The notes: generated by a model not told the origin, from the letters alone. A DNA stretch of 64,000 nt from Clostridia bacterium (GCA_028720145.1 JAQYLJ010000045.1:2283-66282), one strand, 5' to 3'; shown: positions 13,147-33,414, counted from the first letter of the stretch. Translations and numbers: made by a program.

Positions 13147-13203
13147 AGTCCCACTCCCAATCGCTTTTCTTACAGTTTTCCGCCAAGAGCAGTCTCTTAT
13201 ACG

Positions 13204-13233
13204 AAAAAATCGGGCGCCCAAAAGGACGCCCGA
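13204..13233 (-). terminator. intrinsic terminator (end of ABC operon, or attenuator ahead of the SNF gene)
   Basis: Minus strand reads TCGGGCGTCC-TTTT-GGGCGCCCGA followed by TTTTTT. It lies 175 nt after the permease stop and 58 nt before the SNF ATG. Confidence 0.7.
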
Positions 13234-13408
13234 CTATGGGAGAAATACATTTTGTGAGGAGCGTTGCGTGCGGATGGGGTGCGGTAAACACACGGACAGA
13301 GCGTGCAAAACGCGAAACGAGGCGCGGTAGACGCGCAAACGGAGCGCGACGAGCACGCGGATGAGAGGGCGGCAACTCACGCGAGCGCCGCTCTCCCCAA
13401 AAGCCGTC

Positions 13409-14467: not shown

Positions 14468-14479
14468 TTTCTTTCCTCC

Positions 14480-15451: not shown

Positions 15452-15467
15452 TGTTTTCTCTCCTTTC

Positions 15468-18400: not shown

Positions 18401-19622
18401 CTTCGTTCAGGTCCTCGAAGTAGGAGAGAACCACCGAGGAGTATAGCTGCAATTTCACGGAGTTGGTCCACAGGTTCCCGTTCAGGGCGAAGTAGGAGTT
18501 CGGGTAGATGGTCAGTCCGTTCTCGTCCTCGTAGGAGTCTGCGCGGAGATACCCGACTGCGAACAGCGAGCTCCACTTGCTCTCGGGGAGGTCCTTCCCA
18601 TCGCTGTCGATACCGACCTTCTCGTTGTTGATTCTCCAATCTTTCCGATGGATATTCCCACTCGTGGTGACATCCGCGTCATACGCGCTGTAGAACGTGT
18701 AGACAGCGCTGAGTTTCACGAAGTCGTCCGAAATCTTACTGATAGTCGTGACAGGCGCCATGGTCTCCTGTTTTGACGCCGGCTGCTCGCGGTAGAACAT
18801 GGTGTATTCGCTGTCTACCTGGAACAGCCATTCGTCAAAGGCGACCCAGTTGCCGTAAGTCGGGATGCCGTAAGGCTGCTCCGTGCCGTCGTCCCAAGTG
18901 CCGATCAGCTCGGTGAGAGAGAAAACGGAGTCCTTCTCTTTGCAATACTTTTGGAAATCCCATGTGGAAGACGCAAGGTCTGCCTCGGGAATCCCATTCT
19001 CCCGTCCGACCTCACGAATCCTCGTCTCGATCTGCTCCATCATGGGGGCGAGTACATTCTCGACATACACCTTCGCGGGCATGGAGGTCGGGAGCAGATA
19101 CCGTTTGGTGGTATCGCCGAGCACATAATTCACGCGGATCCCGTTCTCGATGGGATCGACGGTGATCTGTCCGTAGGCGGCGGCATCGGGCTGACTCATC
19201 AGCACCGTCGTCTTACGCGTCGCGTCATGGATATTCCGATACTGCAGAATGATCTGGCTCATGAACTCCTTGGACGCGACCGAGGACATATCTTTTCCCG
19301 AGGTGTCATAAGGGTTCGAGGTCAGGATATCGCCTGTCACGATATCCTTGACATACACCTCGCCCGTATAACGGTTGGCATAGAGTTCGTACTGCCCGTA
19401 AACCGTCATCAACACCATGTTCTCGTCGAGGTCGATCTTTTCCTGCGCGGTCGTGTAGGTCTGTGTCAGTGCTTTCGCCGCGAGGGTCTTTGCGGTACTC
19501 TTGACGATTTTGAAATCGGTCGGGGTCTCACCGTTCCGATAGGCGAACACGCCGAGGGGAAGGACGAGCAGGCAACCGAGCAGCATGGCGGTCACGAGTA
19601 TTGCGGATATTATTCTTTTCAT
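15468..19622 (-). CDS. 1384-aa secreted protein of unknown function (possibly the DUF5696-type family; C-terminal half alternates beta/alpha like a glycosidase barrel)
   Basis: Signal peptide MKRIISAILVTAMLLGCLLVLPLGVFA and a GGGAGGAA RBS. Notable motifs are FYPDGSGAVIDF, LPLYIESFG, RLTGFANGG, ISLDGFA and VPFWGMVAHG. I recognise no known catalytic signature. Confidence 0.75.
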   Translation of the reverse strand: MKRIISAILVTAMLLGCLLVLPLGVFAYRNGETPTDFKIVKSTAKTLAAKALTQTYTTAQEKIDLDENMVLMTVYGQYELYANRYTGEVYVKDIVTGDILTSNPYDTSGKDMSSVASKEFMSQIILQYRNIHDATRKTTVLMSQPDAAAYGQITVDPIENGIRVNYVLGDTTKRYLLPTSMPAKVYVENVLAPMMEQIETRIREVGRENGIPEADLASSTWDFQKYCKEKDSVFSLTELIGTWDDGTEQPYGIPTYGNWVAFDEWLFQVDSEYTMFYREQPASKQETMAPVTTISKISDDFVKLSAVYTFYSAYDADVTTSGNIHRKDWRINNEKVGIDSDGKDLPESKWSSLFAVGYLRADSYEDENGLTIYPNSYFALNGNLWTNSVKLQLYSSVVLSYFEDLNEALMNELEAEVGIAMPAANNAIFRVALEYVLDEKGLTVTMPARGIVFDESEYAVEYIDVLPYFGSGKVLEGGFIFYPDGSGAVIDFNDFRTRMSSVSGKVYGQDYAYYSISGKHQQTIALPVFGTVKNTTTYYMVDPYETDARVSVNEKHYRTGSYTITYSYDDKAKQIVANYPRGETRPVQYLLGTHSVTGTTLERAGFEFSTDKQASASDNKYYYGNVTCVVTGNTATSYLTVNGKTTQIENPMVISEEFFGITESHQTGYLAVLEEGASLANINARVNESGNNTKPYTSVYAEYVPQPNDKYNLADVMTGAESSSFYIQAKGKYEGDYSIRYLFLTDPDLASAKGLNGTYDTTYSGMANLYQQYLVDEGVFTALTNLKNDLPLYIESFGVIQTTEKFLSIPYTADKPLTTFEDIRTMYEELKGKNITNIKFRLTGFANGGFTQMEYPVRLKWENAAGGKSGFKKLLAYVNAEDTGLEVFPNFEYLYVRNSSNIKLKDIGARSVDNRYAWHQEYVTVYQEYVKEGGIVVSSDKLDELFGKMLKKYKKYDIGSISLDGFAAELSSNFDEENFIDRETSLENICAFLAGVRESGYTSMMSTGGNMYAFRYMDYLLEAPTDSSHFNAESYTVPFWGMVAHGFLQYAGQPFNEEADKTEAFLRAIESGASLYYLLSYQNTQLLKDTHASDYYSVNYEIEKNSLVTFYQKLNETIGDLQGYRIIDHRGLAAERVQLDEEVELALTTLEEEFLTQLACATEQAVEEEKAFIRDLIAFANENGIDWTNAAFDTLYPIRTKIRTFILDRQDTPTLRAVLGPESDYTGEDIAAKWGKIVDAVNTSATDESKLIAEYGKTIGVSFDTDAILAAAKRAVYSDTLREDFEARIRAFIAENTQETADKIVRVTDVSYTSDYRYFTLSDALDTNYKATTSTVNDHSVVIVTYSDGVNTVRFLLNFNIFAVTVRLDGEVYSLAKYGFVRLG

Positions 19623-19643
19623 TTCATTGTGTTCCTCCCATAC

Positions 19644-21902
19644 TCATGAGCGATAACTGATTTCGGTGGCAAGTCCGGAGACGAAGGAAATCATGTCTCC
19701 GACAAGGCTGGTGAACAGAATGACAACGAACATAATCACTGCCATACTGAGGATGGTACCGAGGGTGGTGACGACATTCTTCCCGAGGGAGTAGTCCTGT
19801 ACCACCATGGTGCCGAAGAAGAGCAGGAATCCGACCCAAATGAACCCGAGCGTGATGATGAAGGTCACAAAACCGTCTGTAAATGTCGCGGAGACATTCG
19901 TCAGCACCGTCCCGAGCACCAGGAACCACGGCAGAGGTGCCGTCGCGTAGCAGGTCGTCACAAAAATCTGCTTGAAAGTCCCTTCCCCGTTGAAGAGGGT
20001 GGTCAGACACCAGTTCGCGACCGACCACAGAAGGACCGGTACGAAGAACGCGAGAATCTGCGAGAAGAAGGAACTGTAACCCATACTCGGATTCGCGAGG
20101 TACGAGCGTCCGATCGAGGCATAGTAGCTCGCGCAGACATTGATCATCAGGATGGTGAGCCCAGCGCGCACCGAACCTCGGTGTTCATGCTTGATGTCCC
20201 AGAACCCGTCGAACGGGTGGAACGAGACATAGAAGCCGTACATGAGTTCTTCCCAATAGGTGCGCCGTCCGCTCTTGAAGTTCCCTTGATAGTTGATGCG
20301 TTTGGCATACTTCATCAGGCGGAGGAACAGGATCACGAGGACAATCACGCCGACAATCATCAGAATCAGGATGAGCGGGTGATTCGTCATATTGTCCTGA
20401 CTCTTGGCGGACAGCGCCTTCGCGTAGAAGTCGGTCTCTTTGGCGGCGGCGAGGTATTCCATCGCCTCGTCGTATTCGCCGTTGTAATACAGTGCTTTCC
20501 CGACCCCGACATACGCGGCGTCAAAGTTGTTGTTCGCGCCGAGGATCTGCGTCCAATAGTCGATCGACTCGTTGTACCGTCGCTCGTTGTCGTTCTTGAG
20601 CGCCTGTATCAGCAGACTGTTGTAGTCGGTCGGGACATACACCGTAATCTGTAGTTTCATGCCGTCGAGCATGAGCAGGTTATAGGTGCCTTCCGTCGGG
20701 TTGTACTGATAGTCGATGGCGTTCAGCGATTTCGGGGAGATGGTACCGAGCTGGAAGGTCTCGGAGAAGTCGCCGAAGGCGTAGAGGAGCTGCCCGTTGG
20801 AATCATAGGTAAAGACCTTACTCCGCTTGTTATCGGCGATGGACCAAGAACCCTCGGGTCCGACGGCGACATCGACGATGGTGGAGACCCCGTAGATGGT
20901 GGAGGACTGCCGCAGCCTCTTGACACTCACTTCACCGCCGCAATCGAAGAAGCCGTTACGCTTCATGATCTCGTCGCCCTTGGTATTCAGTTTCTTGACG
21001 GGAGAGTAGGTCGCGCGGCTCGATCCCGACGCGGTCAGCGCGCTCTCCTGATTCGACTCGTTATCGGTATTCTTGGTCACGGCGTAGATGAAGTCGCCGT
21101 AGGTACCGTGTTCGAGCGCGAGCCGGTTTAGGTTAATCGACACGATGTCGACATGGGTGGCGCGTTCTTCTTCGCTCTCAAAGCGACGGAAGAACATATC
21201 GAAGAGCGAGTAGGTCGCTTTCTGTGCGCCGATAAAGCCGGTGAAATTGCTGTCCTCGTCCATGACGATGACACCCTGGTTACAGCTGGACGCGATGACG
21301 AACAGCCGTCCGTAACGGTCAGCGACACAGGAGACAGGGTCGAAGTCCATTGCCTTTGCCCCTGCGACGATCGATCCGTCCCCATTGTCCGCCTGCTTGA
21401 AGTAGGAACTCTTCGGGGCGGTGACGGTCTTTACAAACTTGCCGTCCAGGTCAAAGACCACCAAGCGGTTGTTCCCGGTATCGCAGACATAGATGCGATC
21501 GTCCGAGACGTACACGCCCTGCGGGTTTCTGAACTGGTCGTTCTTCCCTGCTTCCGAGTTAAACTTCGTGATGACGTACTGCAACTCGTAGGCATGGTTC
21601 AGCACTACGAGTTTCGGTTGGAAGCCCGTCTCGGAGGTCTGGTCGAGAATGTAGACCCACCCGCGAGAGTCGGTGCAGAAGTCGCCGATGTTGTTCCCGA
21701 ACTCGACGGTCTGCCCGCTCTTCGCGGAAATGGTTTCCGCATTGATGATCTCCCGCGCATTATACGCATGGGGAGACTCCATGGTATCGCCGTTGATGGA
21801 ATAGGTATAGGTTTCGTAAGGGGTATATGCCGCCGTATAGGTGCCGAGGCAGAAGATGGCAACCATCACCAAAAGAAACGCGGTTACTAAAATCTTTTTC
21901 AT
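19644..21902 (-). CDS. membrane protein: signal peptide, NHL-like beta-propeller, TPR-like segment, TM, then Yip1-like 5-TM domain
   Basis: MKKILVTAFLLVMVAIFCLG is a signal peptide. NHL-like blades include VYVSDDRIYVCDTGNNRLVVFDLDGKFV and RLFVIASSCNQGVIVMD. The TPR-like segment is AAYVGVGKALYYNGEYDEAMEYLAAAKE. The C-terminal 245 aa carry 6 hydrophobic spans. GGAGG RBS. Confidence 0.75.
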   Translation of the reverse strand: MKKILVTAFLLVMVAIFCLGTYTAAYTPYETYTYSINGDTMESPHAYNAREIINAETISAKSGQTVEFGNNIGDFCTDSRGWVYILDQTSETGFQPKLVVLNHAYELQYVITKFNSEAGKNDQFRNPQGVYVSDDRIYVCDTGNNRLVVFDLDGKFVKTVTAPKSSYFKQADNGDGSIVAGAKAMDFDPVSCVADRYGRLFVIASSCNQGVIVMDEDSNFTGFIGAQKATYSLFDMFFRRFESEEERATHVDIVSINLNRLALEHGTYGDFIYAVTKNTDNESNQESALTASGSSRATYSPVKKLNTKGDEIMKRNGFFDCGGEVSVKRLRQSSTIYGVSTIVDVAVGPEGSWSIADNKRSKVFTYDSNGQLLYAFGDFSETFQLGTISPKSLNAIDYQYNPTEGTYNLLMLDGMKLQITVYVPTDYNSLLIQALKNDNERRYNESIDYWTQILGANNNFDAAYVGVGKALYYNGEYDEAMEYLAAAKETDFYAKALSAKSQDNMTNHPLILILMIVGVIVLVILFLRLMKYAKRINYQGNFKSGRRTYWEELMYGFYVSFHPFDGFWDIKHEHRGSVRAGLTILMINVCASYYASIGRSYLANPSMGYSSFFSQILAFFVPVLLWSVANWCLTTLFNGEGTFKQIFVTTCYATAPLPWFLVLGTVLTNVSATFTDGFVTFIITLGFIWVGFLLFFGTMVVQDYSLGKNVVTTLGTILSMAVIMFVVILFTSLVGDMISFVSGLATEISYRS

Positions 21903-21915
21903 CTTTCGCGCCTCC

Positions 21916-22806
21916 TCAGTCTTTCATACCCGATGAGCCCATGGTCTCGATGATCTTCGACTGGTTGATGACGAAGATGATGATCGGGACGGACATCATA
22001 ATCACGGTCGATGCGGCGCCCGCGCCCGAACGCGCGATACCGCCCGAGATGATCTGACCGATCGCATAGTTGAAAGTCTTCAACTGCTCGGAATGAATGT
22101 AAATGGATGCACCCGTGTTCCACAGTCCCTTGAAGCTCTCGATCATCAGGGTCAGCCACGCGGGTTTGACCATCGGCATGGCGATGGTCCAATAGATGCG
22201 GAACTCGCTCGCGCCGTCGAGTCGCGCACTCTCGAGCACCGTATCGGGGACGCTCGACTCCATAAACTGCTTCATGAGGTAAAGTCCCAAAGTGGAAGCG
22301 AGTGCGGGCAGGATGATGGCGAGGTAGTTATCAATCAGACCGAATGCGGAGAGAATGATGAAGTGGGTCACCTGGTTGACGGTCGAGTGGAACATCAGGG
22401 AGATGACCACGAGCTGGAAGAAGAAGTTTCTCCCGGGGAACCGCAGTTTCGAGAGGGCGTATGCCGCCATCGACGCGAGCAAGAGGTTCCCTGCCGTGCC
22501 GCAGGCGGTGATAAACACCGTGTTGAAGATGTACCGCGAGAACGGCACCCAAGAGTCGCCCATCAGGGTGAACAGGTCTTTGAAGTTGTTGAGCGTGGGG
22601 CGTACCACATAGAAACGCGGCGGGAACACGAAGAGTTCATCCAGCGGTTTGAGCGCCTGAATCACCACATAGTACATCGGCAGGAACATGAAGAGTCCCA
22701 TGAGCGAGAGGACGATGGTGATGCCGACATCGCCGCCGGCGCTTCGGTTCAGAACGACCCGATGGCCGCGTGTCCGTATCTTTTTATACTTTTTCGTCTG
22801 TTCCAT
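21916..22806 (-). CDS. carbohydrate ABC transporter permease (MalG-like; pair A)
   Basis: ESARLDGASEFRIYWTIAMPMVKPA is an EAA motif. Typical CUT1 length of 296 aa. Confidence 0.9.
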   Translation of the reverse strand: MEQTKKYKKIRTRGHRVVLNRSAGGDVGITIVLSLMGLFMFLPMYYVVIQALKPLDELFVFPPRFYVVRPTLNNFKDLFTLMGDSWVPFSRYIFNTVFITACGTAGNLLLASMAAYALSKLRFPGRNFFFQLVVISLMFHSTVNQVTHFIILSAFGLIDNYLAIILPALASTLGLYLMKQFMESSVPDTVLESARLDGASEFRIYWTIAMPMVKPAWLTLMIESFKGLWNTGASIYIHSEQLKTFNYAIGQIISGGIARSGAGAASTVIMMSVPIIIFVINQSKIIETMGSSGMKD

Positions 22807-22807
22807 C

Positions 22808-23896
22808 TCACTCGCCCACCTTTGACAGCGCTTTCTTGATGATTTGGTTGCACCCGATCATTATAATAAATAGGAAAACAGCAATGGCGGATGCATAGCC
22901 GACTTCGTATCGCTGTCCCCCGTAGTCATCGAGACAGTGCATGATGGTATGCCCTGCGTAGTTGACCGACGGGAAGCCGCAGAGCGCGGTCACGACGCCG
23001 CCGAAGCCGAAGGATTGTGTGATGGAAAGCACGGCACCGAACATCAGCTGAGGACGCATGGTCGGCAGCGTGATGTACCAGAGTTCCTGCCACCGGTTCT
23101 TGACCCCGTCGACGGCACCCGCTTCAAAGAGCGAGCGGTCGATGCCCTGCAAGCCCGCGATGAACGAGAGGAATGCGGTACCGAGCGACGTCCACAGTGC
23201 CACGACAATACAGAGCGGCATGATGTACTTCTCGGTCTGGAACCACAAGACGGGGGAGCTGATGATCCCGAGCTTGATGCCCCACGCGTTGACCCACCCG
23301 TAAGAGTCCGAGGAGAACAGGGTACCCCAGATGAGGTAGACCTGCCCGGAAATCGAGGGGGCGTAGAAAATCAGGGTCACCACCGCACGGATTTTGGGCG
23401 GGAGCTCGTTGATGAACCACGCGATGAGCAGGGACATGATGTACGAGACGGGTCCCGTCACCGCTGCGAAGATTAAGGTGTTCTTACACGCTTTCAGGAA
23501 AATCTCGTCCTGCGTGAACAGGCGGATATAGTTGCTGATTCCCTTGAAGTGCGGGGTCTGCAACATATTGAAGTCGGTGAAGCTGAAACCGATGGACAGA
23601 ATGACCGGCAGGACGGTGAAGATGAAGAACAACACCATGAAGGGACCTACCATGAGGTAAGCGATTTTGTTCCGCCGAATCTCTTTGAACAGCCATTGTC
23701 TGCGGGTCATGTCCTTGCGGGAGACCGGGCGGTGCTCGGTATCGACCGCCATCGGCGAGGGGGATGCGGGGGTCATCGCGACAGATGCCGTCGTCTCTTC
23801 AGGCATCACCGCCTCCTGTGCCTTCTCTTCCGGCATTTCGGGAGACACTTGCGCCTGAGAGCGCTGTTCTGCGGTGTCAACAGTATCTTTTGACAT
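22808..23896 (-). CDS. sugar ABC transporter permease (MalF-like; pair A) with ~65-aa acidic/Pro-rich N-terminal extension
   Basis: LFEAGAVDGVKNRWQELWYITLPTMRPQ is an EAA motif. The start was set at MSKDTVD (ATG 23896) because AAGGAGAA lies 6 nt upstream. Confidence 0.88.
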   Translation of the reverse strand: MSKDTVDTAEQRSQAQVSPEMPEEKAQEAVMPEETTASVAMTPASPSPMAVDTEHRPVSRKDMTRRQWLFKEIRRNKIAYLMVGPFMVLFFIFTVLPVILSIGFSFTDFNMLQTPHFKGISNYIRLFTQDEIFLKACKNTLIFAAVTGPVSYIMSLLIAWFINELPPKIRAVVTLIFYAPSISGQVYLIWGTLFSSDSYGWVNAWGIKLGIISSPVLWFQTEKYIMPLCIVVALWTSLGTAFLSFIAGLQGIDRSLFEAGAVDGVKNRWQELWYITLPTMRPQLMFGAVLSITQSFGFGGVVTALCGFPSVNYAGHTIMHCLDDYGGQRYEVGYASAIAVFLFIIMIGCNQIIKKALSKVGE

Positions 23897-23928
23897 AGTC
23901 TTTCTCCTTATCATTTACCGGATGTCTG

Positions 23929-26900
23929 TCAGTTCCCCGAAGTCTGATAGGAAGGAGGCACTTCCCCTGTCCCCAGGGTCTTCATGCCGAATTCCTCTCT
24001 CTTACGGGTCACTTCAGCGTTGATGGCGGCGATGTAACTGCGGAGCGCCTCGACGGGGTCGCTCCCCTTGTTCACCACATCATAGAATGCAAAGTTGGTA
24101 TAGCGTCCGATGATATACGAACCGGGATAGTTGACGATGGCTCCGAGGTGATCGAGCTGTTCCCGAATCGCCGCGACTTCCGCCGAAGTCCAAGCCATAT
24201 CGTCGAGTGCATTCAGGTTGGCGGCGGCGTATTTCCCCGAAGGACCGAGAATCGAGACCATGCGGTTGGAATACTCGCTCGTGTACTGGGCACCGGTGCA
24301 CCACTTGACAAACTGCCATGCGTCCGCGATGCGGTTTTCTCCGGTCGCTTTCATGCGTTCTTCCGCGCTCTTGGTGACGATGGCGGACGAGACGCCCGCG
24401 ATCGCGGTGTAGTTCACACCTGCGGGATCCCCGTTCTCATCGTACTCTTGGATGCCCGGGATATGGGCGAAGCTCCAAAGTCCGTCGAGCTCGGTCGCGT
24501 ACACAATCAACTGGTTGTATGTAGACACATAGTCCTGAATGACGATAGGCATCTCGCCGGTACGGAAACGGGTGGCGGCATTGAAGCTGACGGGGAACGA
24601 ATAGTCGGTATAAAGCCCGCAGCAAAATTCAAACGCGGTCAGACCCTCGTCGGTATCCAGACCGATCTGCGCGCCCTGATACTCGATATCATCCATGTAG
24701 CGCCACATATTTCCTCCATTTTGATAAAGGAAGAAATCCAGGGCGAGCGTGTAGTTCAGACCGATCTCCATGTTGTTCTCGTTGAGGATGGGGAGCAGGG
24801 AGAGCAGTTCGTCCCAAGTCTCCGGGACTTTCGCTTCATCGCCCATCATATTAACAAGGAAGTCGAGGCGGTAGAACATCATGGCGAACGACATGGTCAT
24901 CGGGACACCGTAGGTTCTGCCGAGCAGGGTGATGGAGTCGATCGCGCTCTGATGGAAGTTCGTCATGTGCTCGCTGAAGCCGTCCTGCTCTTCGAGCGGC
25001 AGGACCGCGTCACGAATCGCGTAGTTCATGATGGTCGCGGAGTCGAGACCCATATAGACATCGGGTCCTTTCCCTGCCAAAATGGAGGGGAGCAGGGTTC
25101 CGCCGGTCACGAGTTTCAGGGAGACGGGCAACTGCTTGTAGTTGTTTTCCGTGCAGTAGTCGCTGAAATAGGAGTCAATCAGGTTTCTAACCACCTTACT
25201 TTGGTCACGACCGCTCGCGAGCCATACCTGCAGAGCGTCCTCACTCTCGACGGCTTCTTCCCGTACACCCATCTTATCGTAGTCGGTGAAGAAGGAAGAG
25301 AAGAACGAGCGGATCTCATACCATGCGGACTGGAAGAAGTTTGCGTTCGACTTCCCTGCCGTCGTCGCGCCGGGCGCCTCAATGGTGATGGTATCGACGA
25401 TCAGGGTCGATGCTTTGGAATCCGAGAGCCAAGTACCGAGGGTGCCGAGGTAGGACTTGAAGTCGTCGAGGTTCTTGGCGATCTCGCGCTCGTCGCACAT
25501 GGTGCCGATGAGTCGGTAGATATTCTCGAGGGTGGCGAGGTGAGCACCCGTGCCGCCGCAGATTTCCTTGAATTTGTTTCTGACATCTTCGAGGACCACC
25601 GCTTCTTTGTTCAGCCACCACATGACGTCGGGCAGAACGTCGCTGAAGTGATAATCCTGATATTCATCGGGGTCGGAGCCGGTCAGTTTCAGAATTTGGA
25701 GGTAGCAATCGTTCAGAACGGTCAGCGCCTCCTCCACAATCTGCAACTGTTCGGCAAGCGCGCCGAGACCGACCTCGAAGTAGATGGTGTAAGGAACGCC
25801 GGCTTCAAAATAGAACTTGAAGGTGTTTGTCCCGTCGGTGAGGGGCGCGGACATCCAGTCGCTCGAATAGTTGAAGCGCGTATTAAACGCTTCCCGGAAC
25901 GGAATGACAGGGGTACCGTCGTCGAGACCGTATTTTCCTTTCCCTTCCGTCCCTTCTCCGTTCGAGGTAATGCGGATGGTACGGGAGATGAACATACCTT
26001 CGAGTGCCTTCTGCAAATACCGCATCGAGATTTCGTACATCCCGGTCTCGGAGACGGTGAAGTTGTACGCCGCCCACTGCCCGACGCTCTTATACGAGTT
26101 CGCGCCGATGACATTGTAGAGATCGGCGAACGGCGTCGAGGGAGAGGTGATGGCGGAGCTCTTATTGTTCGTCATGGTGACCGAGGAGTCGGAGACCATG
26201 GTCGGTTTCTCCGCCTGCAAAATCAGCGACGCATTTGCGGACGCATCGGGGACTCCCGCATACTTGGCGAGATATTCTTCATAGGACGGGACCGCGTATG
26301 CCGAAGCGTCCGTCGGAATGACGCGGACGGCGCCGACCACCATGCCCTCACGAATGGCTTCCAGCGTGATGGTGTGCGTCCCGGCAGTGAGATAAAACTG
26401 ATAGTAGCCGCTCGAATACCCCTCGGAGTCGGAGCAGAAATAGGTCTGCCAATGCGAGTATTGGTTCACGGTAGGCGTGAGGTCATTCCCGTTCACATCC
26501 TGCGAAAACCCGAGACGGTCCCACTCCTCTTTCTCAAACGCGCCGGTCACTTCATCGACCGTCGCGGTGGAGTTCTCGCCGTTCTGATACGCATATACCC
26601 ACGACTTGGAAAGAGAAATCATATTCGCCTCGGTAAACGGGAGATCATCGTCAATCAGAAGCTTCCGCTCAATCGAGTTCACCGTCTGCGCTACGGCGTA
26701 GTATTCAATGGCAATGTAGTACATACCGCTCGAGGGAATCTCGATGGTGAAAGCGGTATCGCCCACGGCGGGCGCCCATACCGCACCCGCACGGAAATCC
26801 TCGGTTTTCCCACCGAGCGATGCCCATGCGTCATGATCGATCAGATACGCCCCTTCGTCGGACTGCGAGAGGTCGGGCGTCGAAGACGCTTCGGCGGTAC

Positions 26901-27099
26901 CGGGCTTCTCGTTCCCATACTTGGCGATGTACGCGGCATAAGACTCGGACGCGAGATACTTTCTCATGTCGTCGAGCGCCTTCTCCGCGCTCGTTTGTTC
27001 TTCGGACGCGGCGAATACCGGCAGGATAGACACTCCGCCCAGACAGAACGCCAGCGTCAAAAGGACACAAAGGACGCGGGTAAATCTGCTTGCTTTCAT
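23929..27099 (-). CDS. giant extracellular solute-binding protein: signal peptide, two CBM-like beta-sandwich modules, helical linker, then type-1 SBP core
   Basis: Signal peptide MKASRFTRVLCVLLTLAFCLGGVSILPVFAAS. In ORF-track numbering, CBM-like stretches such as GMYYIAIEYYAVAQTVNSIERKLLID, YYQFYLTAGTHTITLEAIREG and GMYEISMRYLQ cover aa 85-452. The SBP-like core starts at about aa 625 (LQVWLASGRDQSKVVRNLIDSYF...GKGPDVYMG). GGAGG RBS before ATG 27099. Confidence 0.8.
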   Translation of the reverse strand: MKASRFTRVLCVLLTLAFCLGGVSILPVFAASEEQTSAEKALDDMRKYLASESYAAYIAKYGNEKPGTAEASSTPDLSQSDEGAYLIDHDAWASLGGKTEDFRAGAVWAPAVGDTAFTIEIPSSGMYYIAIEYYAVAQTVNSIERKLLIDDDLPFTEANMISLSKSWVYAYQNGENSTATVDEVTGAFEKEEWDRLGFSQDVNGNDLTPTVNQYSHWQTYFCSDSEGYSSGYYQFYLTAGTHTITLEAIREGMVVGAVRVIPTDASAYAVPSYEEYLAKYAGVPDASANASLILQAEKPTMVSDSSVTMTNNKSSAITSPSTPFADLYNVIGANSYKSVGQWAAYNFTVSETGMYEISMRYLQKALEGMFISRTIRITSNGEGTEGKGKYGLDDGTPVIPFREAFNTRFNYSSDWMSAPLTDGTNTFKFYFEAGVPYTIYFEVGLGALAEQLQIVEEALTVLNDCYLQILKLTGSDPDEYQDYHFSDVLPDVMWWLNKEAVVLEDVRNKFKEICGGTGAHLATLENIYRLIGTMCDEREIAKNLDDFKSYLGTLGTWLSDSKASTLIVDTITIEAPGATTAGKSNANFFQSAWYEIRSFFSSFFTDYDKMGVREEAVESEDALQVWLASGRDQSKVVRNLIDSYFSDYCTENNYKQLPVSLKLVTGGTLLPSILAGKGPDVYMGLDSATIMNYAIRDAVLPLEEQDGFSEHMTNFHQSAIDSITLLGRTYGVPMTMSFAMMFYRLDFLVNMMGDEAKVPETWDELLSLLPILNENNMEIGLNYTLALDFFLYQNGGNMWRYMDDIEYQGAQIGLDTDEGLTAFEFCCGLYTDYSFPVSFNAATRFRTGEMPIVIQDYVSTYNQLIVYATELDGLWSFAHIPGIQEYDENGDPAGVNYTAIAGVSSAIVTKSAEERMKATGENRIADAWQFVKWCTGAQYTSEYSNRMVSILGPSGKYAAANLNALDDMAWTSAEVAAIREQLDHLGAIVNYPGSYIIGRYTNFAFYDVVNKGSDPVEALRSYIAAINAEVTRKREEFGMKTLGTGEVPPSYQTSGN

Positions 27100-27140
27100 A
27101 CGAATTTCCTCCAAGGACTCAAATCTTTACGCGCAGCGCA

Positions 27141-27165
27141 TATACGCGTATAAAAAATTGTACAA
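27141..27165. promoter_or_regulatory. two perfect palindromes at the start of the SBP-operon transcript (candidate operators)
   Basis: TATACGCGTATA (27141-27152) and TTGTACAA (27158-27165) lie immediately downstream of the predicted -10. Confidence 0.4.
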
Positions 27166-27168
27166 CCA

Positions 27169-27197
27169 ATCATACCAAAACTCCCGTTTCTTGTCAA
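27169..27197 (-). promoter_or_regulatory. sigma-A type promoter of the SBP/permease/exoprotein operon
   Basis: Minus strand reads TTGACA (27197-27192), 17 nt, TATGAT (27174-27169). Confidence 0.6.
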
Positions 27198-27331
27198 ACC
27201 TCTTTTTTTAGTGAAAATCACGTTCAAAACGCCTAAAAAAAGAACATTGACTCGTTTTTAACGAAGTTCATCTAAAAAAGCGAAAATCGGGGCTGAGAAT
27301 CGGGGGTTGCTCTACGAGTTTTTTTGAATGG

Positions 27332-27443
27332 GTAAATTTAATTTACTTGTATTTTAGAGATTACCGACTGATTTCTAAGGCAAAACGCCGTAAAACACAG
27401 TCGGATATTCTCTGCGTTTGAAAAATTAGTAATCTGAATTTAC
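27332..27443. promoter_or_regulatory. pair of GTAA-N7-TTAC inverted repeats (candidate regulator sites)
   Basis: GTAAATTTAATTTAC (27332-27346) and GTAATCTGAATTTAC (27429-27443) lie 97 bp apart in the AT-rich divergent control region. Confidence 0.35.
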
Positions 27444-27793
27444 GATATGCGGCAAGGCGTGTAAAGAATTGTTTTCATCTTTTGGGGCAAATCCCGCTTT
27501 GTGAGGTATGCACAAAATTCACCCGATAATTTCTACACTGCGCAAAGCACTCCACAAGGGGGAAAATTGCGGCTTTGGACACCGATGCCGGCAAAAACGT
27601 TCGTGTGAGCGGCATGCGCTATCGGGTGTGAGAGCGATGAAAACGGGGCGAGTGCTGTATGCTGCGGCGGATCTGACGGGAGCAGTCAAAGAGACGGGAT
27701 GAGGAGCGTGGCGGGGACGGCGACGCGCGTGTTATCTTCCGGCGACTGTAAGCAACAAATTGCCGTCTCGAACGGTGTTTCTCTCGTCCTTTC

Positions 27794-27822
27794 TTGACAG
27801 ACGGGCGCGCGTGTGCTATAGT
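27794..27822 (+). promoter_or_regulatory. sigma-A type promoter of glucokinase gene
   Basis: TTGACA (27794-27799), 17 nt, TATAGT (27817-27822), with TGC forming an extended -10. Confidence 0.6.
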
Positions 27823-27895
27823 ACAAAAAGGAAACGGAACCGTGCCTGCGTCCTCGCAGCACGAGAGGTCCCGAAACAAAAAGGAGAATCGCATC

Positions 27896-28855
27896 ATGTA
27901 TTACATAGGCGTTGATCTCGGCGGCACCAATATCGCCGTCGGTATTGTGGATGAATCCATGCATATTGTCAAGAAAGGCAGCGTCCCGACCCTCCCCGAG
28001 AGAGGTGCGGAGGCGATCGTCGCCGATATGACCCAACTCGCGGCGAACCTCATGGTCGACTGCTCGCTCACCCTCGCGGATATCGCGTATGCGGGGATCG
28101 CTTCGCCCGGTGTCTGCATTCGCGAGACCGCGACCGTCAAGTATTCCTGCAACCTTCCCTTCCGTGATTTCAAGATTGGGGAAGCATTCAAAAAACACCT
28201 GAATGTCCCCGCGGTCTATGTCGAGAACGACGCGAATGCCGCGGCACTCGCGGAGGCGCTGACGGGTGCGGCAAAGGGCACCAAGAACAGCATCACGGTC
28301 ACCCTCGGCACCGGCGTCGGCGGCGGGATCGTCATCGACGGGAAAATCTATTCCGGATTCAACTCCGCGGGCGGCGAAGTCGGGCATATCGTCATCGTCA
28401 AGAACGGCAGACAGTGCGGATGCGGTCGGCGCGGCTGCTGGGAGACCTACTCCTCTGCGACGGGTCTTACCAACATGACCCGCGAGAAGGTCACCGAACT
28501 CTCCCTCAAAGGGATTCCTTCCCTCATGGTGGACGAATACCGCGCGAACGGAAAGGTCTCCGCGCGTACCGCGTTCGACGCGATGCGGAAAGGCGATGCC
28601 GCCGGAAAAGCGGTCGTCGACGAATATATTTCCTATCTCGCCTGCGGTGTGACGAACATGATTAACATTTTCCAGCCCGAGGTACTCTGCATCGGCGGCG
28701 GAATCAGCAACGAAAAGGGCTATCTGCTCGAACCGCTGAGAGCCATTGTCGACAGAGAACAGTACACCCGTGACAGCGATGCCAAGACCATCGTCAAGAT
28801 CGCCGAAATGGGCAACGACGCGGGCATCGTCGGCGCGGCGGGACTCGGACGGTAA
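27896..28855 (+). CDS. glcK: ROK-family glucokinase
   Basis: MYYIGVDLGGTNIAVG is the ATP site and CGCGRRGCWETY is the ROK zinc motif. There is no N-terminal HTH, so this is a kinase rather than a repressor. The start was trimmed to ATG 27896, after AAAGGAGAA. Confidence 0.9.
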   Translation: MYYIGVDLGGTNIAVGIVDESMHIVKKGSVPTLPERGAEAIVADMTQLAANLMVDCSLTLADIAYAGIASPGVCIRETATVKYSCNLPFRDFKIGEAFKKHLNVPAVYVENDANAAALAEALTGAAKGTKNSITVTLGTGVGGGIVIDGKIYSGFNSAGGEVGHIVIVKNGRQCGCGRRGCWETYSSATGLTNMTREKVTELSLKGIPSLMVDEYRANGKVSARTAFDAMRKGDAAGKAVVDEYISYLACGVTNMINIFQPEVLCIGGGISNEKGYLLEPLRAIVDREQYTRDSDAKTIVKIAEMGNDAGIVGAAGLGR

Positions 28856-29065: not shown

Positions 29066-29698
29066 TCAGTAGTAGGAATACGAGGTCACGATCGTGACGG
29101 TCTCGCCGCCCGCGGTATTGTACTTCACGGCGGCGGCGCTGACGGAACCGTCCGAGAGGGTCAGGGTCACCGTGACCTCACCCGAAATGTCCGTGCTTGC
29201 TTCCGGGAAGAGCGCAAGATATTCCTCCCTCGAAAAGGTCGCGCGGTACTGTCCGCCGCTCTCGGTAAAGGCGGCACCGCGGAACGGCAACGCCGCGGGG
29301 GTCTCCCCGTTTAAGGCGTGCGATTCGCTGCTCTCGTTCCACACCTCGTCCTCTGTCGGGGGATTCAGGACCTTTTTCGTCACCGTCACCGTTTTTGCGG
29401 AAATATCATAGACGCGAACTTCGGAGGCAACGGTCCCGCCGCCGACCGTCACGGTGACGGTCTGACGCACTTCGGTCGCACGATTGGTCTTTGCGGCGGC
29501 AACCGTCACGGGATGGGTGTCGGTCTCCCCGTCTCCGCCCTGCGAGGGCGAATCGGAACCGCTCCCGTCCCCCGTATCGGCGGGCGGGGTGGGGTCATCC
29601 TGCGTCTTTTGGCAGGAAGTTAAGAACAGAGTGCTCAAAAGCAGGCAGACGCACAACAGTGCGTGAAACCAATGACTGCAAGAACGATGATATCTCAT
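29066..29698 (-). CDS. lipoprotein of unknown function
   Basis: The signal peptide ends in the lipobox LTSC (LLLSTLFLTSCQKT), followed by a Gly/Asp/Ser/Pro-rich linker. The ATG overlaps the upstream TGA by 1 nt (TGATG). Confidence 0.7.
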   Translation of the reverse strand: MRYHRSCSHWFHALLCVCLLLSTLFLTSCQKTQDDPTPPADTGDGSGSDSPSQGGDGETDTHPVTVAAAKTNRATEVRQTVTVTVGGGTVASEVRVYDISAKTVTVTKKVLNPPTEDEVWNESSESHALNGETPAALPFRGAAFTESGGQYRATFSREEYLALFPEASTDISGEVTVTLTLSDGSVSAAAVKYNTAGGETVTIVTSYSYY

Positions 29699-32600
29699 CA
29701 GAAGAACCTCCTTTTCCCGAGATACAGAGCCGCGGGGGCAATGACTGCCGCCGCCGTCACGGCGATTTCAAAGCCGACGAGGGCGTCCCCGGTCTTTTCC
29801 GCCTCGGGGAGTGCGGTCTCGGCATGGGCGACCGCCGACCGATAAGAGGCGAGCACCGTATCGTACACGAGTTTTTCTTCGGGTGCGAGCGCCGAAGCGT
29901 CCCCGCCCCAAGTGTCCAGAACTGCCTGTGCCTGTTTGAGTGCGGCAAACTGTTTCTCGGGGGTATTCGCCGTCTGCAACGCCCGCAGGGCACCCGCGAA
30001 GAGTGCCATATCGGGCGACCAATGTGCCGTGAGGGTCAAGCTATCCTCGGGATAGGTCGAGAACGCATATGCCGTGTCCCCGTGATACCAGCCGTCAAAC
30101 ACATAGCCCTCGCGCGTGGGGGCGGCAGGTGCGGTCAGAGGTGCGCCCGCAGCGCCGCTCGACGGAAGAACCGTGCTCCCGCCCGCGGAATCAAAGGTCA
30201 CCGTGACCGTGATGCGGTACTGCGCAGCGATGGTGAGATTCTCGGTTACATTCTCGTAAGAGTCCGACCAAGAGACGAAAGTATACCCCTCGACGGTCGG
30301 CGGGGTGGGTGGGGTCGCGCTCTCACCCTCGTAGAGAACTTCGGTTTTGAGAACGCCGCCGTCTCGGTCGGTAAAGGTGACGGTGAAGGACTTTGCCTCG
30401 GTATATTCTGCGCGCACGGTCAGGTTCTCGGTCACGCGGTCGTATGCCGTCGACCACCGTGAGAAGACAAATCCGCGAATGGCGGGAGGCTCGGGTGCGG
30501 TGGCTCCCTCTCTTTCGTACACCGTCTCGGTCTTTATGGTATTCCCATCTTTATCAAGAAATGTCACCGTATAAGTCGGAATCGGCGTATAAATCGCCTG
30601 TACCGTCAGGTCCTCGGTCACATTCTCATACGAACACGACCATTTTGTGAAGGTGTATCCGCGCAGGGTCGGCGGAGTGGGTGCGGTCGCGCTCCCGCCC
30701 GGGTCGACCGATTCGGTCTTTAAGACCGCGCCGTCACGGTCGAGGAAGCGGACGATGAGTTTGGTCTCCGAGACATAGACGGCTCTCACCGTAATGTCTT
30801 CGGTGACCCCTTGGTAGTCGCCCTCCCACGCGAGGAACCGATATCCCGCGACCACGGGCGGGTCGGGTAAAGTGGGAGTGCACCCGTGGCAGACCGAGAG
30901 GGTCGCAAGGGTGTCTCCGTCCTTCCCCTCTACCGTCACGGTATGGAACGGGGAGAGCGCGGTCAAGGTATTGTCCGCGACGATATCGGTAAAGACCGCC
31001 GAGCGGAGATAGGTCTCTGCTCCGGTCGTATCGTAGGCGACGAGTTCCAGCGTGCAACCCGAGAGGTCGGCGGGAACCCCCGCGAGGGTGATGTCGCAGA
31101 GGACATTCACGGGTTCGTCCGGCAGTACTTTCAGGTATTCGACGGTATAGGTCGTGCCGTCGCTGTCGGTCCATTCTTTCGTATAGATATTGTCGGCGGT
31201 GGCGTACTGCTTATACCCGATATAGGCGTTCACCGAGCCGTTCACGGTCTCTTTGGAAATCAAAGTGCCGTTTGCGCTGTAAATCTGCGCCTCCAAGCGG
31301 TAATTCCGCTCTTCGAGAAGGTAGTTCGCCATGTTCACCGAGACCTTGACCGTCCCGTCGGTGATGTCGGCGAGCGTCCCCACGCGATTCCCCGCACCGT
31401 CAAAGAGAAGCACGCTCCCTGCGGCGAGGTGCTCCGCCATGGTGTTCCCCGTAAATTCGCCGCCGGTCGCCTCCGCCATCTCTTTGCCCGAGCTCCAGCC
31501 ATTGAAGATAATGTTCTTGAACGCATAGCCGTAGCCGGTGATATTGTTGCTGAATGTCAGGTAGTACATATTCTCGATACCCGCGGTCCCGCCGACCCAA
31601 TAGACGGTATAGCCGCCGCCATTGAGCCAGTTCCCGACGCACCTGACATTGGAATAGCCGAGGGTGCCTTGCTCGGGTTTGAAGAAGAACGCCGCGTTCG
31701 CCACGCCGTCCCCTTTGAGTTGCGGGAGATCCACGCGGTTCCCGTAAAAGACCACATTGTCGAGCACCTCGTTCGGCGTCCCCGAGAACTGAATGCCGTC
31801 CGCGTGGGCGAGCGGACTGCCCTGCCCGCCGAGGGTCAGGTAACAATGCTCGACCCGCAGGTTCTTCCCCGCTTTGAGATGGTCGGCACCGACATCGTGG
31901 ATATAGCAATACGAAAGCGTCATGTTGTTCCCACGGTTAAACGAGTGGGTCGCGACGCCCGTCCCCTCGACATATGAGAGGGTCAGATGACCCGTGCCGT
32001 CGTTCGAGACGCAGTAGAAGGTATTGCCGACGAGGAGCGCGTCCTCGATCACAATGTCCTGCGTACACTTGACGGAAATCATGCCGGTGTGTTTGAAACC
32101 CGAGAAACGGTAGCCGTATTCCGCGGCGTTGTCATCGGTGATGGTGACGCCCGTCCCCGAATAGGTGAGGTTCGGGTATTTTTCGGTCAAAAGCGCAAGA
32201 TCCTCTTCGGCGCACCGATAGCCGGTGTTATAGGCATCGGGCATCACAAGCCCGTTTGTCGGCAGGGTCTCGATCGGAATCTTCGGTCGCACCTCTCCCT
32301 CCGTCCCGTAGGTCGCGAACGAGAGGACCGAGCCGCCGAAAAGCGACTGCCCGCAGAAGTCGCGCAGACCCTCTCCGAGGTCGACCGTAAATACGGTATG
32401 CGTGGGGAGCGGGTCCTCGGCGAAACTGATCACCAGTTGCCGTGGGGCGGACGCCGACCAGTTGACCGCTGTATAGGGGATAAGATTCCCCGCCTCGTCG
32501 GTTACGGTGATGCTGTTCAGCACCTCGTCGGTAATCTCCAAATCGTGAGAAAACTTCATGGTGTAGTTGCCGTCAAGTTTGAGATTCCCGTGTTTGTCTC

Positions 32601-33414
32601 CCACATAGGGGTCCAGCGCGGCGGACTCCAAGTAGAAGTCCCCGGGGTGGCAGAGATAAATGTTGTCGAGCAGCATTCCGTAGGTGAGCGCGGTGTCCCC
32701 CGTCTGTGCGGGAATCCCGTAGGAAAGTTGCAGGTCTGCCTTACTCCCCGCATTGGCGATTCCGTCGACGCGAATCTTATCGCACGCGCCCCCCTGCGCA
32801 TTTGTCAGAGTACCGAGAATGGTCACGCTCGACAGATGGTCCTCCGGGGCGTAGGTCACGGTCAGTCGCACCCAAGTGCCCGTCGGAAACGACGCAATCG
32901 TCCCTGTGGGACTACTCACTCGACAGAGGTCGTCCTCCCGCGTGACGGTCACGAGGTCGACCCCGTACAGTTTGACCGTGAAAGAGGTCACCCCGATCCC
33001 GATTTCCGACTGTTCCGATGACGGAATCAGCAGATTACAGGCGAAAATGGTGGGGAAGTTCGGGTCGGGGTAGGTATGGTTTTTGATGAGTTTGTTGTTC
33101 TGCGCCGAAGCGGATTGCGTACCGCCCGCAAAGAGCACCGAGTTGGTCTCGTCGAACGGGTCGGTCATGGGCGTCAGGGTCCCTCCCACTTTTTTATTCC
33201 ATCTGCCGGTGGCGCTGCCGGAGGACGGGGACATGACGATCGATCCCGCCTTAAACACGGTATGGTCGAGTATCACCGTATCTTTCCGATAGGTTTGTTC
33301 CTCTTCTTCTCCGATCTCCCCCTCGGTCTCCCCGGCGGCGACGGGAATCGCCATGAGCGAGAACGGGAGCATGAGCGAGAGCGCGAGCATGAAAGCCAGC
33401 AAAATGCGTTTCAC
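29698..33414 (-). CDS. large cell-surface protein: signal peptide, Ig-like and right-handed beta-helix region, five tandem repeats, C-terminal TM anchor
   Basis: Signal peptide MKRILLAFMLALSLMLPFSLMAIPVAAG. Beta-helix-like rungs include NMTLSYCYIHDVGADHLKAGKNLRVEHCYLTLGG...AHADGIQFSG...VFYGNRV. The repeats are listed separately. The C-terminal FEIAVTAAAVIAPAALYLGKRRFF is a TM span with a basic stop-transfer. Confidence 0.8.
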   Translation of the reverse strand: MKRILLAFMLALSLMLPFSLMAIPVAAGETEGEIGEEEEQTYRKDTVILDHTVFKAGSIVMSPSSGSATGRWNKKVGGTLTPMTDPFDETNSVLFAGGTQSASAQNNKLIKNHTYPDPNFPTIFACNLLIPSSEQSEIGIGVTSFTVKLYGVDLVTVTREDDLCRVSSPTGTIASFPTGTWVRLTVTYAPEDHLSSVTILGTLTNAQGGACDKIRVDGIANAGSKADLQLSYGIPAQTGDTALTYGMLLDNIYLCHPGDFYLESAALDPYVGDKHGNLKLDGNYTMKFSHDLEITDEVLNSITVTDEAGNLIPYTAVNWSASAPRQLVISFAEDPLPTHTVFTVDLGEGLRDFCGQSLFGGSVLSFATYGTEGEVRPKIPIETLPTNGLVMPDAYNTGYRCAEEDLALLTEKYPNLTYSGTGVTITDDNAAEYGYRFSGFKHTGMISVKCTQDIVIEDALLVGNTFYCVSNDGTGHLTLSYVEGTGVATHSFNRGNNMTLSYCYIHDVGADHLKAGKNLRVEHCYLTLGGQGSPLAHADGIQFSGTPNEVLDNVVFYGNRVDLPQLKGDGVANAAFFFKPEQGTLGYSNVRCVGNWLNGGGYTVYWVGGTAGIENMYYLTFSNNITGYGYAFKNIIFNGWSSGKEMAEATGGEFTGNTMAEHLAAGSVLLFDGAGNRVGTLADITDGTVKVSVNMANYLLEERNYRLEAQIYSANGTLISKETVNGSVNAYIGYKQYATADNIYTKEWTDSDGTTYTVEYLKVLPDEPVNVLCDITLAGVPADLSGCTLELVAYDTTGAETYLRSAVFTDIVADNTLTALSPFHTVTVEGKDGDTLATLSVCHGCTPTLPDPPVVAGYRFLAWEGDYQGVTEDITVRAVYVSETKLIVRFLDRDGAVLKTESVDPGGSATAPTPPTLRGYTFTKWSCSYENVTEDLTVQAIYTPIPTYTVTFLDKDGNTIKTETVYEREGATAPEPPAIRGFVFSRWSTAYDRVTENLTVRAEYTEAKSFTVTFTDRDGGVLKTEVLYEGESATPPTPPTVEGYTFVSWSDSYENVTENLTIAAQYRITVTVTFDSAGGSTVLPSSGAAGAPLTAPAAPTREGYVFDGWYHGDTAYAFSTYPEDSLTLTAHWSPDMALFAGALRALQTANTPEKQFAALKQAQAVLDTWGGDASALAPEEKLVYDTVLASYRSAVAHAETALPEAEKTGDALVGFEIAVTAAAVIAPAALYLGKRRFF
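30020..30946 (-). repeat. five tandem ~62-aa coding repeats (Listeria-Bacteroides / Flg_new-like pattern)
   Basis: The repeated pattern is xTVTFxDxDGxxLKTExVxxGxSATxPxPPTxxGYTFxxWSxxYxNVTExLTVxAxY, seen 5 times in 309 aa. Confidence 0.8.

Follow-up and report, generated by a model that had tools for sequence, protein, structure and literature searches.

A giant solute-binding protein of Clostridia joins a MalE-type core to a conserved CBM35-like arm and lacks a lipobox

What could be the role of an arm of about 590 extra residues placed ahead of the core of a bacterial solute-binding protein (SBP)? The question is raised by a gene of a Clostridia bacterium (GCA_028720145.1), found in a stretch of 64,000 nucleotides (JAQYLJ010000045.1:2283-66282, hereafter the window), whose product, called here the giant SBP, reaches 1056 amino acids (aa). 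An initial annotation of this DNA had proposed that the arm holds two modules resembling carbohydrate-binding modules (CBMs), which would capture a polymer before oligomers are handed over to the SBP core. The analyses reported here point to a core of the oligosaccharide-binding type, to a large conserved family and to an arm with CBM35-like modules in a protein that has no recognizable lipid anchor. We tentatively propose, from sequence and model comparisons, that the arm attaches to a polymeric glycan on the cell surface, retaining the SBP there and positioning its binding cleft.

The C-terminal part of the protein is related to the binding proteins of CUT1 ATP-binding cassette (ABC) importers. 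The SBP-like core had been placed from about residue 625 (nt 23929-25242), and this position is confirmed by the sequence matches in the PDB, which start at residue 621 and include 5ysb at 1.8e-6. Scanned alone, aa 620-1056 pass two Pfam families, SBP_bac_8 with 47.6 bits (cut-off 27) and SBP_bac_1 with 43.1 bits (cut-off 26). When the whole 1056-aa protein is submitted to hmmscan, no SBP family is returned even at E ≤ 1, while the C-terminal 437 aa pass; the missed domain is a false negative of the HMMER filters, to which long multidomain queries are prone. A Foldseek comparison of the core with the PDB gave 912 matches at E ≤ 0.001, and the best of these are oligosaccharide SBPs (9xf5, 5ci5, 5ysb, 3uor; target TM-score 0.7-0.83, E 1e-15 to 1e-17), with an identity between the core and solved SBPs of just 13-18%. 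Many Trp, Tyr and Arg residues of the core are invariant. The protein is thus identified by sequence as a MalE-type (CUT1) SBP, and sugar binding and delivery are its predicted functions. Well-characterized members of this type, such as the beta-1,2-glucooligosaccharide-binding protein Lin1841 of Listeria (5ysb), the cycloisomaltooligosaccharide-binding protein 9xf5 and the Xanthomonas MalE (3uor), share the same two-lobe fold and, as for the giant SBP, CUT1 SBPs have a neighbouring MalF/MalG-like permease pair; they measure about 380-450 aa, whereas the giant SBP carries its additional arm and has no lipobox. Dextran, or an alpha-1,6-glucan, was considered as the ligand, the best SBP match (9xf5) and the best CBM match (from a CITase) being both isomaltooligosaccharide systems, and was rejected, the margins over other matches being too small.

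That arm and core belong to a single fused protein, as initially annotated, is supported by the integrity of the gene. The open reading frame (ORF) runs without interruption from 27114 to 23929 on the minus strand; its most upstream start is a TTG (27114-27112), and the ATG at 27099 gives the 1056-aa product. Since the TTG overlaps the GGAGG ribosome-binding site, the ATG is the likely start. Further upstream, a promoter-like site scores 11/12 against the sigma-70 consensus and is the best match on the minus strand within 13000-28000. Among the 120 BLASTP relatives listed, which form the homologue set, lengths are between 1030 and 1214 aa with the exception of one 709-aa fragment, and the query is covered at 94-100% in about 110, at 89% in one and at 57-67% in eight (best BLASTP segment). 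Because homologues are full-length and query coverage is high, the N-terminal extension is not explained by a wrongly assigned start or by a distinct gene, and the feared internal start, with an upstream gene of its own, is not found. An antisense stop-free ORF of 1001 aa also crosses the SBP gene (24148-27153, plus strand); comparable long antisense ORFs lie over other genes of the window (e.g., 13361-14368, 15606-16715 and 37472-38923) and probably arise from the codon usage of a genome with 55-60% G+C.

The anatomy of the arm was described on two AlphaFold models, one of the full-length protein built from a 120-sequence alignment (mean pLDDT 88.4, pTM 0.83) and a second one limited to aa 33-612 (pLDDT 94.9, pTM 0.91). 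In these models the arm behaves as one confident, rigid multi-domain unit, in agreement with the expectation that structure prediction would give CBM-like beta-sandwiches in the N-terminal region. Two beta-sandwiches, at about aa 65-262 and 291-443, are joined by a linker containing one helix (all parts are collected in Table 1). Profile-profile alignment of the two modules (aa 85-265 against 290-450) gave a probability of 95% and an E-value of 2.5e-8; when aa 562-580 were appended to module 2, the hhalign probability reached 97% and the E-value 1.9e-10, over 138 columns and from end to end. In this extended alignment the counterpart of STLIVDTITIEAP is the last strand of module 1, GMYYIAIEYY pairs with GMYEISMRYL and YYQFYLTAGTHTITLEA pairs with FKFYFEAGVPYTIYFEV, in accordance with the repeated motifs on which the two beta-sandwich-like segments had been proposed. 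The two modules are therefore seen by sequence as mutually homologous, very divergent beta-sandwiches. A size of about 170 aa had been given for both; the beta-sandwiches stand, and the size does not hold for module 1, which reaches about 200 aa owing to an insertion of about 55 aa (aa 173-225). This insertion contains a motif, DVNGND (aa 201-206; 26482-26499, minus strand), that resembles the calcium loops of EF-hand and dockerin type, and its D201 and N205 are kept across the wide family.

The helical region, initially described as a separate segment of about 150 aa, is present in the models at another place and with another size: since STLIVDTITIEAP completes module 2, it is a bundle of about 115 aa located inside the last hairpin of this module. 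In the full-length model the helices of the bundle span aa 446-473, 490-514, 519-533 and 544-562, and the bundle includes a conserved acidic loop, TGxDPDEYxDY (aa 473-483). Between module 2 and the core, the connector has a helix (aa 586-604; 25288-25344, minus strand; NFFQSAWYEIRSFFSSFF) that is aromatic-rich and amphipathic, with a hydrophobic moment of 0.49 and a mean hydrophobicity of 0.22-0.26, and that could lie on the membrane or on the surface of a partner. F599, S602 and Y607 of the connector are strongly conserved, and the linker that leads to the SBP core is modelled with lower confidence (pLDDT blocks of 71 and 64 over aa 601-620).

The relationship of the arm to known CBMs was evaluated in both sequence and structure. 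A profile of module 2 built from 83 relatives matched the CBM35 of the CITase (a dextran-cyclising enzyme) of Paenibacillus (5x7g) with an E-value of 1.4e-6, over positions 36-153 of the 156 of the profile, and the CBM35 of CsxA (2vzp) at 0.014; matches of the module 1 profile were weak (0.04 for a fucosidase C-terminal domain, 0.12 for 2vzp). The arm model, submitted to Foldseek as a whole (aa 33-612; the aligned module is not specified), returned 2vzp (TM-score 0.72), 2vzr (0.68), 2w1w (0.64), 4qb1 (0.61) and the CBM6 2cdo (0.54), with a probability of 1.0, as well as CBM-bearing enzymes such as Xyn30D and CITases. The initial guess of a CBM6/35 type is thus upheld for the fold and for a distant homology; membership in CBM35 is not established. 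Indeed, no module passes the Pfam CBM_35 gathering threshold, either in the window or in the relatives (83 members for each module); sub-threshold matches were found in 4 of the 83 members per module, the best E-values being 0.00057 and 0.0028. The arm lies outside all Pfam-A and NCBIfam models, and the full-length scans gave only a sub-threshold Golvesin_C.

The signature of the CBM35/6 site consists of a region-A Trp and a region-C Asn (PMC9843283). In a profile alignment that is provisional, the canonical region-A Trp507 of the CITase falls on T407, a non-aromatic column with an Ala consensus, and, in the same provisional alignment, the region-C Asn is not found in the last strand of either module, where an Ile or Leu occurs two positions before the last-strand Asp. 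The invariant W415 aligns with Trp515 of the CITase, a sugar-stacking residue tested by mutation. Moreover, E297 of the first strand and D569 of the last strand are conserved at the positions of the structural calcium of CBM6/35 modules, a role that we presume for them.

The arm is shared by a large family. Used on its own as the query of an exhaustive search, it found at least 1476 representatives of 50%-identity clusters at E ≤ 0.001, 522 of them at E ≤ 1e-30; among the 150 cluster matches listed, most are 900-1250 aa long, with the match at the N-terminus followed by about 350-550 aa, and some 30 are shorter, probably as fragments. When species-representative genomes were scanned, at least 576 loci were obtained, and nearly all of the 80 loci listed belong to uncultured gut bacteria of ruminants and humans (Clostridia, Eubacteriales or Oscillospiraceae). 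In the source records the family members bear generic names (e.g., extracellular solute-binding protein). Two contigs with a cassette of Clostridia type are labelled Akkermansia muciniphila (SBP 69% identical) and Methanocorpusculum sp. (L012, L061), labels which most likely stem from misbinned contigs in the source assemblies.

Conservation is unevenly distributed along the protein. In the close family the mean identity to the query is 59% for the SBP core, 58% for module 2, 54% for the helical insert and 37% for module 1, and a conservation of 90% or more is reached in 28-32% of the columns of module 2 and its insert (32% for module 2 alone). From these sequence comparisons, module 2 with its helical insert appears as conserved as the SBP core, and within the arm conservation is lowest in module 1. 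The wide alignment takes in 117 relatives, whose identity to the query goes from about 68% to as low as about 28%; conservation still reaches 85% or more at 22 positions of module 2 and at 15 of the helical insert. Polar and aromatic residues make up many of these positions, which in module 2 include E297, N329, W342, Y355, R360, Q363, R373, E403, F409, Y411 and W415.

SBPs of Gram-positive bacteria are normally lipid-anchored, and the N-terminus of the giant SBP departs from this rule. Its signal peptide ends with an Ala-x-Ala-type site and has no lipobox; signal ends of the same type recur in the 45 N-termini of close members inspected and in those inspected in the wide family. None of the 121 close members has a lipobox, and a lipoprotein reading was rejected on this basis. 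In the wide family, 12 of 121 members match a lax lipobox pattern, most of the matches inspected being situated within the hydrophobic core. In two distant cassettes (L083 and L084, described below), the normal-size SBP of the operon has a classic lipobox (LAGC and VCGC, respectively) and the giant SBP has none. Since a cleaved, anchor-less SBP of a Gram-positive bacterium would diffuse off, some other hold is required. In the model, an N-terminal helix is placed at residues 5-24. Upstream of a ROK-family gene, the window (29066-33414, minus strand) encodes a protein of 210 aa whose lipobox (LTSC) is clear, from which it follows that the organism makes lipoproteins; the second gene of this region, on the same strand, encodes a surface protein of 1238 aa with a beta-helix region and Listeria-Bacteroides repeats.

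The giant SBP gene is the first of a cassette of seven genes, followed by permeases P1 and P2, an NHL-TPR-Yip1 protein, a DUF5696 protein and permeases P3 and P4. This gene order is repeated in the related loci L001 and L002, and the succession SBP-P1-P2-Yip1 occurs in the 72 of 82 related loci that are long enough to show it (72/72). P1 and P3 are 28% identical (E 1e-14), P2 and P4 22% (E 2e-10). In the NHL-TPR-Yip1 protein, the NHL and TPR part is predicted to be extracytoplasmic, between a signal or transmembrane segment (aa 4-22) and a second transmembrane segment (aa 509-527), after which the Yip1 membrane domain follows. No ATPase gene is present in the cassette, and Pfam and NCBIfam scans recognized no glycoside hydrolase (GH) in it. 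The ROK gene adjoins the cassette in 28 of the 82 related loci, 24 of which have it on the other strand. L083 and L084 were reached via DUF5696 and encode giant SBPs of 953 and 988 aa, about 28% identical to that of the window, with all five parts of the architecture kept; a normal-size lipoprotein SBP gene precedes that of the giant SBP (1785-3194 in L083, 1369-2850 in L084). In both, NHL-TPR (about 495 aa) and Yip1 (about 205 aa) are two adjacent genes, whereas they are fused in the window, which indicates that the two parts act together. Both cassettes continue with glycoside hydrolase genes (GH2-like or GH123) and with genes for a histidine kinase and an AraC-type regulator, and the cassette is for this reason regarded as a carbohydrate-utilisation locus.

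Some features of the neighbouring genes deserve mention. P1 has a Pro/Glu/Ala-rich N-terminal extension of about 75 aa (aa 1-75; 23690-23914, minus strand), atypical for MalF/UgpA-like permeases and presumably cytoplasmic and disordered. The cassette of the window has two permease pairs for one SBP gene; the second pair may share the giant SBP or depend on another SBP whose gene lies elsewhere. With 1384 aa, the DUF5696 protein exceeds the longer homologues among the matches listed (about 790-860 aa); its Pfam match starts at residue 644, and its signal sequence contains LLGC, a possible lipobox. For this protein, phmmer against the PDB found no solved relative, a lenient Pfam scan added nothing and the homologue search gave no informative fused domains; the profile matches to interferon-gamma (E 1e-4) and GH129 (0.29) in the PDB are both regarded as chance.

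Table 1. Parts of the giant SBP, its gene and the surrounding cassette in the window
Feature	Residues (aa)	Nucleotides	Strand	Evidence
Giant solute-binding protein gene, stop codon at 23929-23931 included	1056 aa	23929..27099	-	ORF, full-length homologues, model
Signal peptide, Ala-x-Ala-type end between PVFA and ASEE, without lipobox	1-30	27010..27099	-	hydrophobic segment 9-27; predicted cleavage
Two short N-terminal helices, Y54 and Y57 invariant	37-61	26917..26991	-	DSSP on models; invariant columns
Module 1, divergent CBM35/6-like beta-sandwich	62-264	26308..26916	-	model strands; homology to module 2
Module 2 body, CBM35-like beta-sandwich	288-445	25765..26238	-	profile against PDB; Foldseek on arm
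Helical bundle, inserted in last beta-hairpin of module 2	446-562	25414..25764	-	model helices; profile-profile alignment
Module 2 closing strand, STLIVDTITIEAP, D569 invariant	563-577	25369..25413	-	model strand 567-574; pairs with last strand of module 1
Connector, amphipathic helix then linker	578-620	25240..25368	-	model helix 588-604
SBP core, two-lobe MalE-type oligosaccharide-binding fold	621-1040	23980..25239	-	Pfam, PDB sequence match, Foldseek
Ribosome-binding site GGAGG, 8 nt upstream of ATG 27099		27108..27112	-	sequence read directly
Promoter-like site, TTGACA, 17 nt, TATGAT, TG-extended		27169..27197	-	consensus match only
Permease P1, MalF/UgpA-like	368 aa	22808..23914	-	Pfam BPD_transp_1, NCBIfam UgpA-like
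Permease P2, MalG/UgpE-like	296 aa	21916..22806	-	Pfam, NCBIfam
NHL-TPR-Yip1 membrane protein	752 aa	19644..21902	-	Pfam Yip1 1.6e-12, NHL 1.3e-7
Secreted DUF5696 protein	1384 aa	15468..19622	-	Pfam DUF5696 3.2e-131; N-terminal hydrophobic segment only
Permease P3, MalF-like		14480-15451	-	Pfam
Permease P4, MalG-like		13409-14467	-	Pfam
Terminator-like hairpin closing the operon, 12-bp stem, 8 G-C pairs, T-run		13208..13235	-	after seventh gene
Divergent ROK-family gene	319 aa from ATG	27896..28855	+	Pfam ROK 4.4e-64

How could these elements work together? In the reading we favour, the CBM-like arm is predicted to be a working glycan binder that holds the anchor-less SBP on a cell-surface polymer, which could be either the cell's own wall polymer or a captured substrate. 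The arm would substitute for the lipid anchor and set the SBP cleft at the place where oligosaccharides get released. The core would take up an oligosaccharide, possibly made by the DUF5696 protein, for which an enzymatic role is a guess, and would pass it to the adjacent permease pair. Energy would be provided by an ATPase encoded elsewhere in the genome, as is usual for such importers in Firmicutes. A precedent for a tether on the producer's own wall exists in the CBM35 of CsxA, which binds the wall polysaccharide of its producer (Montanier 2009, as cited in PMC11002231). The adjacent ROK gene and the glycoside hydrolase genes of the distant cassettes also speak for a glycan-binding arm. Where the bound polymer is the substrate, capture followed by hand-off would be a sub-case of this reading, and this initially proposed design is plausible, surface retention or docking on a partner fitting the data equally well. 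Retention or docking is regarded as at least as likely as polymer capture because there is no lipid anchor, because module 2 and its insert are conserved and because the gene keeps fixed company with those of NHL-TPR-Yip1 and DUF5696; in addition, a hand-off from polymer to oligomer needs a separate enzyme, since an SBP cannot depolymerise.

Several observations weigh against glycan retention. If a glycan is bound, the alignments suggest that the classical CBM35 site would not be used, and the Pfam CBM_35 cut-off is reached by no module. An uncleaved signal peptide might itself act as an anchor and make any other tether needless. Finally, the high conservation of module 2 and of the helical bundle is easier to reconcile with a conserved protein partner than with a glycan, because wall polymers and substrates vary between species.

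This last point leads to the possible, if doubtful, alternative of a protein docking arm, in which sugar binding has been lost and module 2, together with the helical insert, docks on NHL-TPR-Yip1, on the DUF5696 protein or on the permeases. The tether would then be a protein and not a lipid, and the whole would form a fixed surface complex. In agreement with docking, module 2 and the bundle match the SBP core in conservation and the distal module 1 does not, and neither the Trp nor the Asn of the canonical CBM35 site is kept. The NHL-TPR-Yip1 gene is found in all informative loci and even in the cassettes whose SBP is just 28% identical, the NHL-TPR part is predicted outside the membrane, and NHL-TPR and Yip1, separate in the distant cassettes, are fused here. 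Against docking, the kinship to real CBM35 modules is still detectable in the sequence and the sugar-stacking Trp position (W415) is invariant; it is because of this ancestry and of W415 that we favour glycan retention over a docking arm. The two could also be combined in a surface machine, which we consider rather unlikely, where the SBP is docked on NHL-TPR via module 2 and the helical bundle, the distal module and the DUF5696 protein capture and process a polymer, and the two permease pairs import the products.

Pure capture of a substrate followed by hand-off, in which an uncleaved signal peptide anchors the protein and the modules bind only a polymer from the diet or the host, with which they supply the SBP cleft, appears unlikely. 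The CBM35-like fold and homology, the glycoside hydrolase genes of the distant cassettes and the helix modelled at residues 5-24 are consistent with it, but the recurrent Ala-x-Ala-type signal end points to cleavage, the SBP has no depolymerase activity, the cassette of the window has no recognized glycoside hydrolase and the classical binding residues are absent. Very improbable is an inert stalk, in which the arm would be a rigid spacer raising the SBP through a thick wall or an S-layer: the rigid multi-domain model (pTM 0.91) and the low-confidence linker to the core would suit it, but spacers drift, whereas in module 2 and the helical insert 28-32% of the columns show a conservation of 90% or more, many of them polar and of surface type, and a spacer requires an anchor at its base, of which none is evident. 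An annotation artefact, either two merged genes or a wrong start codon, is refuted by the continuous ORF, by the ribosome-binding and promoter-like sites upstream of the ATG at 27099, by the full-length homologues held in hundreds of genomes and by the confident full-length model.

The comparison with known systems shows both familiar and unfamiliar traits. The arm modules share the beta-sandwich of the CBM35s (5x7g, CBM35-1 inserted in the Paenibacillus sp. 598K CITase; CsxA 2vzp; Clostridium thermocellum 2w1w; Xyn30D 4qb1) and of the CBM6 2cdo (TM-score 0.54-0.72). In contrast to CBM35s, module 2 has about 20 extra conserved loop residues after strand 1 (SDSSV..TN..S..T.P), carries a helical bundle in its last hairpin and has no aligned signature Trp or Asn; CBM35s are borne by enzymes, whereas the arm modules are borne by a transport binding protein. 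The top Foldseek match of the arm (E 1.1e-7, about 600 columns) is the C-terminal region of the Cry1 protoxin of Bacillus thuringiensis (8w7n, 4w8j, 9qxq), at a TM-score of 0.10-0.16 and a root-mean-square deviation of about 27 Å; for Cry1Aa, the top match itself, the TM-score is 0.11-0.16. The protoxin region of Cry1Ac also alternates CBM-like beta-rolls and helical bundles. This likeness is domain by domain, with no sequence or functional link, and kinship to the Cry protoxins was rejected on that ground. If the arm does bind a surface glycan, a functional analogue would be found in the SusE/SusF-type proteins of Bacteroidota, in which tandem surface CBM-like domains keep the glycan near the transporter. 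Sus proteins are outer-membrane lipoproteins of diderms that work with a TonB-dependent transporter (partly after PMC13543919); the modules of the giant SBP are fused to an ABC binding protein of a Gram-positive lineage and are not homologous to them. In the open-access literature we found no paper on DUF5696, on a CBM-fused SBP or on the association of SBP and Yip1 genes, and a 2026 review of bacterial glycoside transporters uses the term "carbohydrate-binding module" twice, neither time for an SBP, and "CBM" never. The parts, an SBP and a CBM35-like fold, are thus known, and their combination is not described in the open-access literature searched: a helical bundle nested in module 2, a family-wide loss of the anchor and the fixed company of two uncharacterised proteins and a second permease pair.

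Gram-positive gut bacteria take up carbohydrates mostly through ABC importers, whose binding proteins are viewed as small lipid-anchored units. The giant SBP departs from this view, its size being doubled by a conserved CBM35-like arm and its lipid anchor being lost, in a large family. Should the arm be an ordinary substrate-targeting CBM, this would be a modest extension of known modularity, and no surprise of principle is expected unless the docking arm or the surface machine is real; the latter would be a functional counterpart of the Sus complex of Bacteroidota, made from wholly different parts. If the arm indeed binds a glycan or docks on a partner, it would represent a new way to retain and position an SBP at the Gram-positive surface, and would also give a first handle on a widespread, uncharacterised cassette of gut bacteria.

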